DNA of 64,000 nucleotides from an uncultured Chloroflexia bacterium (GTDB lineage Bacteria > Chloroflexota > Limnocylindria > Limnocylindrales > CSP1-4), in contig CAVVCZ010000005.1 in NCBI GenBank assembly GCA_963746845.1, positions 256,001-320,000 on the forward strand. The letters are read 5' to 3'. Shown here in pieces: positions 30,665 to 55,118 of this stretch (its first letter is position 1; each line of letters begins with the position of its first letter). A program made the position numbers and the translations under genes. The notes beneath the pieces were generated by a model. That model did not search any database and was not told the origin of the DNA. It worked only from the letters and a program-made list of their open reading frames with translations.

Positions 30665-31165
30665 ATGAACGAGATCGCCGGCCGGCTCCGCGACGCGGGC
30701 ACCGAGCTCCTGGACCTGCGCGGACCGCTGGTCGCGGGCGAGCCCTGGCCGCTGAGCGCCGCCTACGGCACCGAGCCGGAGGCCGACTGGGGACCGCGCG
30801 AGGTCCTCGCCCACGTGAACGAGATGCTCCCGTACTGGACCGCCCAGCTGCGGGACGTGCTCGCGGGCGACCCGGCGACGGCCGTCCCGTTCGGGCGGGT
30901 CGCCACGGATCCGGCGCGCCTGGGCCGGATCGCGGCGGACCGGAAGCTGACAGCCGGCGAGCTGCTCGACGGGATCGACGCCGGGCTCGTGACCGCCACC
31001 ACGTTCGTGAGTGGGCTGACCCCGGTCGATCTCGGCCGGCGCGGACTTCACCCGGCGCGCGGCGAGATGACGATCGAGGCAGCGCTCGAGCCATTCCTCG
31101 TCGGCCACCTCGAGGGTCACGTCGTCCAGCTGCGGGAGATCCTCGCCCGCCGCGTCCCGGCCTGA
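30665..31165 (+). CDS. DinB/YfiT-like four-helix metalloprotein
   Basis: W.PREVLAHVNE...HLEGHVVQL His triad; divergent from hppD. Confidence 0.8.
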   Translation: MNEIAGRLRDAGTELLDLRGPLVAGEPWPLSAAYGTEPEADWGPREVLAHVNEMLPYWTAQLRDVLAGDPATAVPFGRVATDPARLGRIAADRKLTAGELLDGIDAGLVTATTFVSGLTPVDLGRRGLHPARGEMTIEAALEPFLVGHLEGHVVQLREILARRVPA

Positions 31166-31357
31166 TCCGTCGCCCCCGGATCGCCGCCGCGGGGCCGGTA
31201 ACCGAGCCAAATTTGGTGCCCGGATGCCACGATCCCGTGCTCAACAGGACCTTCGGCGGGGCGGTCATGGTACCCACGGGCTATTCCCGCCAAACCCCCG
31301 AGGACCGTACGGTCCCTTTCCGCGCGCGTCCGGGAGGCGCGAAGGAGGGATCGTCCA

Positions 31358-31456
31358 ATGCAGAAGGTCAAGTCGCTGGGGTTCAGGATCGTATTGGTCC
31401 TGTCCGCGCTTGCCAGCTCGGCACTCGTGCTCGAAGCCGGCCAGCGCTGGCGCTGA
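31358..31456 (+). CDS. Small peptide MQKVKSLGFRIVLVLSALASSALVLEAGQRWR (32 aa)
   Basis: AAGGAGG RBS; signal-peptide shape; shares EAGQRW with 44846-44947; absent from the ORF track. Confidence 0.8.
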   Translation: MQKVKSLGFRIVLVLSALASSALVLEAGQRWR

Positions 31457-31570
31457 ACCCACACCGTCCCGCGACTTCGGACTCATCCGGCGGGCCTCCG
31501 ACCGCCACCGCGCCTCGGCGCAACCGACGAGCCGCCCGTCCTCCACGGGCGGCTCTTCGATTCCCGGGGA

Positions 31571-32542
31571 TCAGTGGTCGCGGCCCTCGCGCAGGACGCT
31601 CCGCAGCACGAACGCGACGTTCGCCGGCCGCTCCGCCAGCCGCCGCATGAAGTACGGGTACCACTGCGTCCCATAGGGGACGTACACCCGGACACCGAAG
31701 CCGGCCTTCACGAGCCGCTCCTGCAGGTCGCGCCGCACGCCGTACAGCATCTGGAACTCGAACCGCTCCGGCGCGATCCCGTGCTCGCGAACGAAGGCCA
31801 CCGCGCGTCCGATCAGCCGCTCGTCGTGGGTCGCGAGCGCCGGGAACTCGCCCTCGGCGAGCAGCCGCTCCATCAGCTCGCCATACGCCTTGTCGACATC
31901 CGGCTTGTCCGGGAACGCGACGGCCGCGGGCTCGACGTACGCGCCCTTGCACAGCCGGACCCGTGCCCGCTCGACGATCAGCCCCTCGATGTCGGCGCCG
32001 CTGCGCCGGAGCGCGGCCTGGATGACGACGCCGGAATCGCCGTGCCCGGCATTGACCGGTCGGAGGGCCCGCCACAGGGCCATCGTCGCCTCGGTCGTGT
32101 CGTGGGTCTCCATGTCGATCCGGACGAAGGCGTCGCACGCGGCGGCCCGGACCAGGATCCGCTCGACGTTCTCTCGGCAGACCGCGTCGTCGAGCCCGAG
32201 GCCCATCTGGCTGAGCTTCACGCTGACGTTGCGATCGAGGCCGCGGGCCGCGAGCGCGTCGAGGGTCGCGAGATAGTCGTCGGCGGCGGCCCGCGCGTCG
32301 ACAACCGAGGTGACGGCCTCGCCGAGGACGTCCACGGTCGTGCGCAGCCCGGCCGCGTGGAGGCGGTCCAGGGCGACGAGGGCCTCGTCGAGGGTCTCGC
32401 CGGCGACGAACCGGGCCACCATCGAGCGGGTGACGGGGAGGCGGGTTGCCAGCCGACCGAGGGACCGCCGGCGGGAGAGCCACAGCAGGAACGAGCGCAG
32501 GGCCCGCTCGGGAGCCGCACGGAGGGCGGTGGTGGCCGGCAC
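31571..32542 (-). CDS. Monofunctional proline dehydrogenase
   Basis: RFVAGE, SVKLSQMG, RLCKGAY, ATHD, EFQMLYG and YFMRRLAERP motifs. Confidence 0.93.
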   Translation of the reverse strand: MPATTALRAAPERALRSFLLWLSRRRSLGRLATRLPVTRSMVARFVAGETLDEALVALDRLHAAGLRTTVDVLGEAVTSVVDARAAADDYLATLDALAARGLDRNVSVKLSQMGLGLDDAVCRENVERILVRAAACDAFVRIDMETHDTTEATMALWRALRPVNAGHGDSGVVIQAALRRSGADIEGLIVERARVRLCKGAYVEPAAVAFPDKPDVDKAYGELMERLLAEGEFPALATHDERLIGRAVAFVREHGIAPERFEFQMLYGVRRDLQERLVKAGFGVRVYVPYGTQWYPYFMRRLAERPANVAFVLRSVLREGRDH

Positions 32543-44845: not shown

Positions 44846-44947
44846 TCAGTGGCCCCAGCGCTGACCGGCCTCCGCGGCGAGGGCGATCGCGGCGACGATC
44901 GCGAGGGGCAGCGCGACCCGCGCGGCGGTGGTAATCCGGCTGAGCAT
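44846..44947 (-). CDS. Small peptide MLSRITTAARVALPLAIVAAIALAAEAGQRWGH (33 aa)
   Basis: GGAGGAG RBS; signal-peptide shape; shares EAGQRW with 31358-31456; absent from the ORF track. Confidence 0.8.
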   Translation of the reverse strand: MLSRITTAARVALPLAIVAAIALAAEAGQRWGH

Positions 44948-45065
44948 CTCGATGACTCCTCCGGCCGAGGCCGGCCTTCCGGCGTCGAACCCCTTCGAGG
45001 AGTGCCCGGTCCAGGAACGCCATGGCCAGTCTGGCCGACGACGCTTATCCGGCGGTCACCGGTGC

Positions 45066-45236
45066 CTACATCGCGGGCTCGTACTCCGGGTCCAGGAACC
45101 GCTCCGGGTCGTCCCGGAACTCGAGGTAGCAGCCGCGGCCGCAGAACCAGTACGTGGTCCCATCGTGCTCGATCTTGAGGTCGGTCGTCGTGGTGTCGAC
45201 GTCCATCCCGCAGACCGGATCCTTCTCGATCGTCAT
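45066..45236 (-). CDS. YHS/TRASH domain protein (56 aa)
   Basis: DPVCGM...YWFCGRGC..EF..DPERF. Confidence 0.9.
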   Translation of the reverse strand: MTIEKDPVCGMDVDTTTTDLKIEHDGTTYWFCGRGCYLEFRDDPERFLDPEYEPAM

Positions 45237-55043: not shown

Positions 55044-55118
55044 TGGTTGCGGGGGACGGATTCGAACCGCCGACCTTCGGGTTATGAGCCCGACGAGCTG
55101 CCGCTGCTCCACCCCGCG
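55044..55118 (-). tRNA. tRNA-fMet (CAT), initiator
   Basis: CGCGGGGTGGAGCAGC...GGG-CTCATAA-CCC...GGTTCGAATCC...ACCA; C1:A72 mismatch and three G-C pairs in the anticodon stem. Confidence 0.97.

Follow-up and report, generated by a model that had tools for sequence, protein, structure and literature searches.

A conserved micro-protein family associated with c-di-GMP-I riboswitches in the uncultured Chloroflexota class Limnocylindria

The DNA considered here, referred to throughout as the window, is a stretch of 64,000 nucleotides from contig CAVVCZ010000005.1 of an uncultured Chloroflexia bacterium (G000:C5:256001-320000 in our designation). The draft genome to which it belongs, G000, consists of 3.56 Mb in 12 contigs, and the G+C content of the window is 71.7%. 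The element of interest is an open reading frame (ORF) located at positions 31358-31456 on the forward strand. When read directly from the sequence, it begins with ATG, comprises 32 codons plus a stop, and encodes the type A micro-protein MQKVKSLGFRIVLVLSALASSALVLEAGQRWR. An earlier note, prepared from the sequence of the window alone, had drawn attention to this ORF, to its AAGGAGG ribosome-binding site, to its solitary position in about 400 bp of intergenic DNA, and to a second ORF in the window bearing the same EAGQRW motif, all of which are borne out. The ORF is a real and conserved gene. It belongs to an unannotated micro-protein family of uncultured soil Chloroflexota, and most members of this family are encoded directly behind class I cyclic di-GMP (c-di-GMP-I) riboswitches. 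The features of the two family loci in the window are as follows.

31246-31288, forward strand: conserved upstream DNA block, consisting of an inverted repeat, GGAC-N12/13-GTCC, and then TGGTAC...GGGCTATTCC (alignment of 13 same-genus loci).
31302-31315, forward strand: 14-bp palindrome GGACCGTACGGTCC, of which the core CCGTAC[G/C]TTC[C/G] alone is conserved across 13 same-genus orthologous loci.
31342-31348, forward strand: Shine-Dalgarno sequence AAGGAGG, 9 nt 5' of the ATG, with a purine-rich GGAGG/GAAGG block at the equivalent position in 12 of 13 aligned same-genus orthologs.
31358-31456, forward strand: type A micro-protein gene, 32 amino acids plus stop, stand-alone and without a riboswitch; evidence from homologs, substitution rates and RNA-library contigs.
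31457-31528, forward strand: strongly conserved 3' untranslated region (UTR), including the hairpin GGCGG-GCCUCCGA-CCGCC at 31489-31506 (13 same-genus loci).
31529-31555, forward strand: terminator-like hairpin GAGCCGCCCG...CGGGCGGCUC followed by UUCGAUU, in the interval that separates the micro-protein gene from the convergent gene for proline dehydrogenase; two pairs at the base of the stem covary, in three sequences each.
44846-44947, reverse strand: second and more divergent type A copy, 33 amino acids plus stop, MLSRITTAARVALPLAIVAAIALAAEAGQRWGH, 3' of a YHS-domain gene (family profile E 2.8e-15).
44956-44962, reverse strand: Shine-Dalgarno sequence GGAGGAG of the second copy.

The spacer that harbors the ORF is 405 bp in length and is delineated on one side by a DinB_2 gene, whose end is at 31165 on the forward strand, and on the other by the proline dehydrogenase gene, which is convergent and ends at 31571 on the reverse strand. 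The upstream block at 31246-31288 is probably promoter or operator DNA. Neither an Rfam match at E ≤ 10 nor a match to the c-di-GMP aptamer model was observed in it, and RNAalifold applied to the upstream region of the 13 same-genus loci gave weak structure support and little folding. A regulon was sought by means of the combined pattern of the upstream blocks, which has no second occurrence in the genome. The palindrome described in the earlier note is present, but as a palindrome it is not conserved. On the other side of the gene, the 3' UTR is conserved more strongly than the 5' flank. The loop of its hairpin bears an invariant CCUCC, and the five stem pairs are likewise invariant, such that covariation is absent. 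Note that from 31457 to 31568 on the forward strand the sequence is near-invariant in the 13 same-genus loci, and that the CCUCC of the loop resembles an anti-Shine-Dalgarno sequence. The 18-mer of the hairpin has one further copy in the genome, at G000:C4:1101843 on the reverse strand, where it lies within a tandemly repeated intergenic element 3' of another gene.

A six-frame scan of the entire genome, in which a hydrophobic 20-mer had to precede G-x-[RK]-W with a stop no more than four residues further on, yielded exactly four ORFs, and for this reason the window ORF is not regarded as a chance occurrence. Two of the four are those in the window. The others form a tandem pair at C5:231889-232087 on the reverse strand, 55 kb upstream on the same contig, which reads (GTG)KGNLVRLTWAVMLVASLALTIGAGLRWY and then, after 5 nt, MTRMLKAQAFRVLMVVSAIASSALVLEAGQRWKL. 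The motif EAGQRW is identical in all three type A paralogs of the genome. The C-terminus of the more divergent window copy is EAGQRWGH, and a counterpart of this copy exists in one same-genus genome at G016:C7:366641-366736.

The earlier note had proposed a check for purifying selection, and selection on the family was found to be both present and specific to the reading frame. The pooled ratio of nonsynonymous to synonymous substitution rates (dN/dS), calculated by the Nei-Gojobori method over a 28-codon core (88 sequences of type A and 43 of type B, all distinct), is 0.30 in frame for type A versus 1.6 and 2.0 in the shifted frames, and 0.43 in frame for type B versus 0.9 and 2.3. Column entropies for type A are 0.68, 0.46, and 1.14 at codon positions one, two, and three, respectively, with the third being the highest. 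Indeed, within the same-genus alignment the differences in the ORF are chiefly synonymous third-position changes, and the C-terminal motif is kept as amino acids while its codons vary. The annotated frame is open by construction. Every alternative frame of type A is broken by stops in some members, and one alternative frame of type B (forward strand, shift 2) is stop-free in all 41 sequences.

With respect to expression, five runs of soil metatranscriptomes, drawn from four studies, each matched a small share of a 1.6-kb stretch, and the contigs of four runs were placed; those parts of the stretch that lack RNA-contig cover constitute no evidence of silence. One X3 contig extends from 31333 to 31513 with two differences, one X4 contig from 31334 to 31480 with one, and one X5 contig from 31454 to 31567 with none. 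For X3 and X4, which derive from a single study, no contig with fewer than three differences was found for the flanking genes. There is moderate evidence that the window copy gives rise to a short, abundant transcript.

The family is composed of two types of peptides. Those of type A contain 32-34 residues and end in ...SALASSALVLEAGxRW, the consensus being K-S/A-Q-A/G-F-R-x-L-x-L-SALASSALVLEAG-Q/R/K-RW followed by 0-2 residues. Those of type B contain 29 residues, initiate with GTG behind AAGGAGTC, and end in ...GAGxRW, with the consensus (M)KANLARFTWALxLLASMALTxGAG-M/L/I/V-R/K-W followed by 0-4 residues. Start codons and ribosome-binding sites are conserved across the family. In tandem pairs the type B gene comes first. 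The type A copy that follows has no separate ribosome-binding site and begins a few nucleotides past the type B stop, which suggests that the two are translationally coupled.

The homolog search proposed in the earlier note was productive. A profile built from the four paralogs gave between two and nine matches in each of 23 of the 24 same-genus genomes. In the other family of the order, with genomes of ∼1.1 Mb, there were only weak matches (E 0.02-0.4) within long open frames, and these were left uncounted. A broader profile was employed for the tallies at the class and phylum levels. Within the class, the micro-protein is found in 54 of 301 genomes, distributed as 36 of 91 in family f1, 17 of 103 in f4, 0 of 12 in f2, 0 of 92 in f3, and 0 of 2 in f5. 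A draw of 401 genomes from the phylum contained 11 with a match, two of them among the approximately 355 genomes outside of the class. Both out-of-class matches are weak (E 3.6e-5 and 7e-4), with C-terminal ends of GAGDKWT and GAGTKWG, and they are plausible distant relatives. The same-genus tally includes one unpublished genome, G010. Its locus, L025, contributes a single row to the neighborhood, DUF5317-synteny, aptamer, dN/dS, conservation, and alternative-frame analyses described in this report, and it supplies one row of the 30-row alignment A7, on which the DUF5317 complex and fold models, the PDB profile search, and the hhalign comparison drew. Eleven flagged unpublished genomes are among the 301 of the DUF5317 class tally given below.

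A profile search of 1.84 billion representative proteins provided 265 matches at E ≤ 1e-3, of which 14 were at E ≤ 1e-10. Most of these are short proteins, or over-called frames that match at the C-terminus. One entry of 70 residues, P0001, consists of type B joined in frame to type A, minus the R-W and stop of type B, and may represent a real fusion or an assembly artefact. Of the contigs carrying 65 family loci, 59 bear Chloroflexota-type labels (metagenome-assembled genomes, or MAGs, of Candidatus Limnocylindrales/Limnocylindria). For the remaining six (L066, L077, L080, L095, L100, and L123) the label is Verrucomicrobiia, Deltaproteobacteria, Gemmatimonadales, Sulfomarinibacteraceae, or Patescibacteria; they nevertheless display a Limnocylindria-type gene neighborhood, which suggests that they are mislabelled or misbinned MAG contigs. 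No family in Pfam or NCBIfam matched the peptides above its cut-off. An identity with PAGK was considered and rejected, the single match being sub-threshold (17.6 bits versus a cut-off of 22.8) and taken as chance. The ESM Atlas contains only unnamed clusters with lengths of 31-33 residues.

The type B-type A pair in the genome under investigation is preceded directly by a c-di-GMP-I aptamer, which scores 63.2 bits with RF03167 (gathering score 59) and 60.5 bits with RF01051 (gathering score 35) and ends 36 nt 5' of the type B start codon. An Rfam aptamer is present at 20 of 20 such paired loci and at 18 of 20 further loci, the two exceptions being the weak out-of-class matches. These counts were extended by a uniform nhmmer scan with a sequence model of 39 aptamers, in which each distinct place was counted once. 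By this measure an aptamer lies within 80 nt upstream of type B at 39 of 41 places, within 220 nt of a type A that follows a type B at 25 of 25 places (and 5' of that type B), and within 200 nt of a stand-alone type A at 14 of 71 places. The two copies in the window showed no Rfam match at E ≤ 10 and none with our own aptamer models. In covariance-model searches, positional orthologs from other genera, namely stand-alone type A genes on which a proline dehydrogenase gene converges from downstream, do bear the aptamer (L046, L092, L093, L097, L103, and L126, for example); it was not found for the window copy or for its same-genus orthologs. For most of the aptamer matches the GGC variant model gives the highest score, and c-di-GMP is the putative ligand of that variant.

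The spacers between aptamer and start codon measure 25-39 nt, and a U-run occurs in 0 of 23 of them, from which it follows that control is probably exerted at translation initiation. The ribosome-binding site overlaps a local hairpin in most leaders; it is mostly paired in 11 of 23, and in 17 of 23 it is less accessible than in shuffled controls. In an RNAalifold calculation on L001 3070-3201 (reverse strand) and 22 related leaders, the near-invariant GUCCAGG at the 5' end of the aptamer pairs with CCUGGCG, which corresponds to type B codons 5-7, and no covariation is seen. Either this pairing or the local hairpin at the ribosome-binding site could constitute the expression platform. Taken at the level of sequence, the family appears to be wired to c-di-GMP signaling through the riboswitch, with most of its members being putative outputs of c-di-GMP sensing.

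The genome contains four c-di-GMP-I aptamers in all: the one at the tandem pair, two at proteins of more than 300 residues, and one at a 31-codon ORF. The second and third, at G000:C5:217386-217459 and G000:C4:602085-602157 (both reverse strand), precede paralogous proteins of 315 and 495 residues, each with an N-terminal hydrophobic segment, which are probably secreted or exposed at the surface and members of the same regulon. The fourth, at G000:C4:727366-727569 on the forward strand, is followed by an AGGAGG site and a different hydrophobic 31-codon ORF. The candidacy of that ORF as a gene is unsupported, for no counterpart was found in the 15 same-genus genomes searched with it as the query.

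The neighboring genes, whose tabulation had also been proposed in the earlier note, were examined by clustering the flanking ORFs of 125 loci and annotating the ten commonest clusters with Pfam. These clusters correspond to HPPD, DUF5317, DinB_2/peptidase S9, GAF-GGDEF-EAL, proline dehydrogenase, ilvB, DUF421, FAA hydrolase, and two without a Pfam match. Two arrangements recur. In the first, a membrane-anchored GAF-GGDEF-EAL gene is followed by DUF5317, the aptamer, type B, type A, and often then ilvB, and the membrane GAF-GGDEF-EAL gene is a conserved neighbor of the paired paralogs. In our genome ilvB is located downstream of the pair and on its strand, and it is a downstream neighbor at 23 loci. 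In the second, HPPD on the opposite strand is followed by a DinB_2-like gene, with or without DUF5317 and with or without the aptamer, then type A, beyond which lie a proline dehydrogenase gene in convergent orientation and/or DUF421/YetF, together with an S9 peptidase gene that is likewise convergent. The window locus conforms to the second arrangement minus both DUF5317 and the aptamer.

DUF5317 is a multi-pass membrane protein of about 185 residues with no invariant cysteine or histidine in its alignment. By use of a hidden Markov model constructed from the three DUF5317 genes of G000, and with the requirement that the gene be upstream, on the same strand, and within 700 nt (some places were counted twice), it was located next to type B in 34 of 43 cases, next to type A after a type B in 20 of 25, and next to stand-alone type A in 38 of 78. 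Across the class it is present in 235 of 301 genomes (89 of 91 in f1, 60 of 92 in f3, 84 of 103 in f4, and 0 of 12 in f2), including all 54 of those with the micro-protein when the lists are compared by eye. A model of DUF5317 alone has a predicted local distance difference test score (pLDDT) of 88 and a predicted template modeling score (pTM) of 0.81. No relatives were found in the PDB by sequence profile at E ≤ 10 or by Foldseek at E ≤ 0.001, and a literature search uncovered no paper naming DUF5317. A natural fusion of DUF5317 with the peptide was also sought. The sole read-through frame, L098 1795-2556 on the forward strand, was rejected, for it arises from a frameshift that puts low-complexity sequence in place of the last DUF5317 helix and represents a pseudogene or an assembly error.

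The pattern of conservation in the peptides extends well beyond the C-terminal motif. Among 79 distinct type A peptides, numbered by the 28-residue core, the best-conserved positions are R7 (99%), L12 (94%), S17 (99%), S18 (94%), V21 (99%), L22 (92%), E23 (95%), A24 (100%), R27 (100%), and W28 (100%). They are spread over both the helix and the motif, and the positions between them vary more. Both types share an invariant arginine, 19 mostly hydrophobic residues, and Arg-Trp; in the window ORF the predicted helix runs from the invariant Arg 10 to Arg 30-Trp 31 with 19 residues between the arginines. The residues following the tryptophan number none in 14 of the type A peptides, one in 54, and two in 11; where there is a single residue, K, R, F, L, N, and H are among those observed. 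The type B tails are rich in the aromatic residues W and Y. Such a pattern is in keeping with a membrane-spanning helix that has interfacial anchors and packs against a second helix. It is at odds with a disposable signal peptide and a diversifying mature peptide, the hydrophobic segment being conserved as strongly as the tail.

A model of the complex was calculated from the DUF5317 protein of the riboswitch locus in our genome (186 residues, 30-row alignment) and the adjacent type A peptide (34 residues, 27-row alignment). The interface score, ipSAE, is 0.64 (0.63-0.65 in three runs) versus 0.00 for the best of three controls; the ipSAE mark is reached by 58 of 80 solved complexes and by 2 of 110 mismatched pairs, a calibration that is only rough with our own alignments. 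Contact agreement between the runs is at least 92%, and the partner pLDDT is at least 74. As modeled, peptide residues 14-33 contact most of the DUF5317 helices, and the contacted DUF5317 residues that are invariant in the alignment are Q42, F46, V69, G88, A89, N92, A95, N123, S124, D137, N149, S152, G154, and D155. The model supports the binding of type A to DUF5317. An uncleaved peptide residing in a membrane complex was one outcome that the earlier note had held to be at odds with its pheromone proposal, and the model, in silico only, does place the uncleaved helix inside of DUF5317.

We judge the chances to be about even that the members of the family remain uncleaved and act as micro-protein partners of DUF5317 within a c-di-GMP circuit, and in this explanation the family is specific to the class Limnocylindria. 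The product of the window ORF would be a single-pass membrane micro-protein of type A that works without being cleaved. The ancestral unit would have been operon-like, with genes for the membrane GAF-GGDEF-EAL enzyme and DUF5317, the c-di-GMP-I riboswitch, type B, and the translationally coupled type A. Binding of c-di-GMP to the aptamer, 25-39 nt before the type B start, would alter translation initiation of the pair. The peptides would then enter the membrane, pack one conserved helix face into a conserved groove of DUF5317, and modulate its activity. The window copy would be a paralog that remained after riboswitch loss; expressed under a conserved promoter region of its own, and with a 3' UTR that is likewise conserved, it would furnish a c-di-GMP-independent supply of the same subunit. 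Comparable peptides are KdpF, CydX, AcrZ, and MgtS, which are single-helix peptides of ∼30 residues that bind and modulate a larger membrane protein and are often encoded beside it. The Limnocylindria peptides resemble these in their size, their predicted single helix, and their frequent location beside the gene for a larger membrane protein. They differ in having no sequence relation to them in Pfam or NCBIfam, in that the partner belongs to a family without a known function, in the existence of two paralogous peptide types, and in an expression gated by a second-messenger riboswitch.

The closest analogue, and a precedent, is the CD1980.2 family of C. difficile, which is apparently unrelated in sequence. 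These are 58-residue membrane-associated proteins encoded behind class I c-di-GMP riboswitches, with some paralogs lacking the riboswitch, and they promote sporulation (PMC13724677, 2026). A four-helix bundle with a C-terminal hydrophobic helix is predicted, the members are 50-88% identical, regulation is by premature transcription termination, and no homologs outside of C. difficile are reported (PMC13724677). The two families have in common small, multi-copy proteins that were missed by annotation, that are (by prediction in the present case) membrane-associated, and that lie directly behind c-di-GMP-I riboswitches, as well as additional paralogs without a riboswitch such as the window copy. 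The Limnocylindria peptides are distinguished by a length of 29-34 residues with one helix as opposed to 58 residues with a predicted four-helix bundle, by the absence of a U-run from all 23 spacers as opposed to transcription termination, and by the DUF5317 link and the A/B pairs, for which there is no counterpart in the CD1980.2 family with its role in sporulation.

Our search of the literature did not locate a prior description of the family or any work joining Limnocylindria with c-di-GMP, and among papers on c-di-GMP riboswitches and small membrane proteins, as judged by their titles and abstract openings, none dealt with Chloroflexota. With the present results, a widespread but uncultured class of soil Chloroflexota gains a conserved micro-protein family that lacks annotation. 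The results represent a second, phylogenetically distant case of c-di-GMP riboswitches positioned over what are predicted to be tiny membrane proteins, the first being that from C. difficile published in 2026, and two distant cases suggest a more general output route of c-di-GMP signaling. They also provide a first functional handle on DUF5317, for which a peptide partner is predicted and a connection with the enzymes of c-di-GMP turnover is indicated.

Several considerations weigh against the favored explanation. The window copy is not adjacent to a DUF5317 gene, and the three such genes of the genome lie elsewhere. DUF5317 is far more widespread than the micro-protein (60 of 92 versus 0 of 92 genomes in f3). 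It has no need of the micro-protein, since ten short-frame DUF5317 genes from micro-protein-negative genomes are followed by neither a micro-protein ORF nor an aptamer within 650 nt downstream. Divergent micro-proteins, sought in the same ten genomes and over the same distance, were not found. The strictly hydrophobic stretch of type A amounts to ∼15 residues (I11-L25) and is succeeded by E-A-G, which is compatible with a signal peptide having a small residue at position -1. The controls for the complex model were unrelated natural proteins, perhaps not hydrophobic helices, and a groove could conceivably take up any helix. Because the homologs were recruited through similarity at the protein level, the dN/dS values are biased downward. 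Finally, the RNA-library contigs provide neither strand, transcript ends, nor expression level, and they could reflect DNA carry-over.

An alternative, which we regard as unlikely, is that the peptide is the precursor of a processed signal. The N-terminal helix would serve in export or targeting, and cleavage near A-G/x-R-W would be accomplished by signal peptidase I or, in the manner of AgrB and AgrD, by DUF5317 acting as a maturase. The short xRW peptide so released would be sensed, perhaps by the neighboring membrane GAF-GGDEF-EAL enzyme. The earlier note had favored signal-peptidase release of a GQRWR pheromone. Pheromones of the Phr/RRNPP and ComX types derive from tiny precursors in which the N-terminus is basic, the core is hydrophobic, and the C-terminus carries a short signal motif, and the present family shares with them the tiny ORF, the basic N-terminus, a hydrophobic core of ∼15 residues, and a short, conserved, tryptophan-containing C-terminal motif. 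Small residues (E-A-G in type A and G-A-G in type B) precede the invariant R-W, and by eye E-A|G or A-G|x could be a cleavage site. Against such an origin, the helix is conserved like the tail, and on one face. The motifs are identical among paralogs and genera with no pherotype diversification (A, R, and W are present in 100% of the 79 type A peptides), and the tail after the tryptophan is variable or absent. Unlike pheromone precursors, moreover, most members lie behind a c-di-GMP riboswitch. No receptor-type gene, no RRNPP receptor gene, and no ComQ-type gene occurs among the ten commonest neighbor clusters, ComQ, the isoprenyl transferase that acts on the tryptophan of ComX, not having been searched for genome-wide. 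As for the undescribed signaling system postulated in the earlier note, what survives is a conserved, unannotated family tied to c-di-GMP signaling, whereas the pheromone mechanism is unsupported.

The form of this alternative in which DUF5317 is a new intramembrane maturase, with two invariant aspartates cutting both the A and B peptides at A-G|x-R-W, strikes us as quite improbable. The Agr system comprises a membrane maturase, AgrB, and a small precursor, AgrD. Here too the gene for a multi-pass membrane protein of ∼185 residues is followed by a tiny ORF, an order recalling that of AgrB and AgrD, and the peptide occupies a conserved groove in the model. Two invariant residues of DUF5317, D137 and D155, contact the peptide in that model and, by an extrapolation of the helix register, would be near the AGxRW end. 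The conserved membrane GGDEF-EAL neighbor would likewise be in keeping with a signaling role. In contrast to AgrB, DUF5317 has no invariant cysteine or histidine, a riboswitch separates the two genes, and no adjacent two-component sensor is seen among the annotated neighbor clusters. DUF5317 is also without a detectable relation to known intramembrane proteases. A resemblance to LspA (signal peptidase II, Pfam Peptidase_A8) was suggested by a match at E 0.58 in one of the three proteins and by a similar C-terminal motif, and apart from this match only its own Pfam family was recovered at E ≤ 10. The candidate failed both profile-profile and fold tests: hhalign against 18 LspA sequences gave a probability of 0.5% (E 0.12, 17 columns), no fold in the PDB matched at E ≤ 0.001, and no signal peptidase was among the 40 Foldseek matches listed. 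Were the maturase to exist, the c-di-GMP riboswitch would time the release of a short Arg-Trp signal, and the result would be a quorum or autocrine system of the AgrB/AgrD kind that is coupled to a second messenger, with possible feedback on the neighboring membrane GAF-GGDEF-EAL enzyme.

In a further alternative, the peptide is membrane-active by itself, for example as a depolarizer resembling type I toxins or holins or as a membrane-stress peptide, and would act on the bilayer rather than as a subunit of DUF5317. The peptides are indeed small, hydrophobic, and multi-copy, with arginine and tryptophan at what would be the membrane interfaces, and DUF5317 occurs without them in many genomes. 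In type I toxin systems a conserved 3' UTR is often the target of an antisense RNA, and the 3' UTR of the window copy is unusually conserved. We nevertheless hold this explanation to be improbable in view of the syntenic chromosomal conservation class-wide, the strong purifying selection, the translational coupling of the B-A pairs behind a metabolite-sensing riboswitch, a helix-face conservation that points to protein-protein packing, and a docking model that passes its controls.

That the ORF is untranslated, the conserved entity being an RNA (a small RNA with a CCUCC-exposing 3' hairpin, or a leader or upstream ORF controlling, for example, ilvB), is highly improbable: conserved 5' and 3' flanks, the position of the B-A pair 5' of ilvB, and a sub-threshold Rfam match to CcsR1 (15.6 bits versus a gathering score of 65.3) speak for it, but selection is frame-specific with the wobble positions most variable, the ribosome-binding sites and start codons are conserved, the C-terminal motif is maintained as amino acids, the same peptide is retained in three unrelated genomic contexts, and the window copy faces a convergent gene and therefore has nothing downstream to control.

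Two further observations were made elsewhere in the window. A sub-threshold match to the Guanidine-II riboswitch (24.8 bits versus a gathering score of 32) at 45104-45144 on the reverse strand falls inside the YHS-domain coding region and is probably due to chance. A tRNA gene is located at 55047-55118 on the reverse strand (Rfam tRNA, 62.4 bits).

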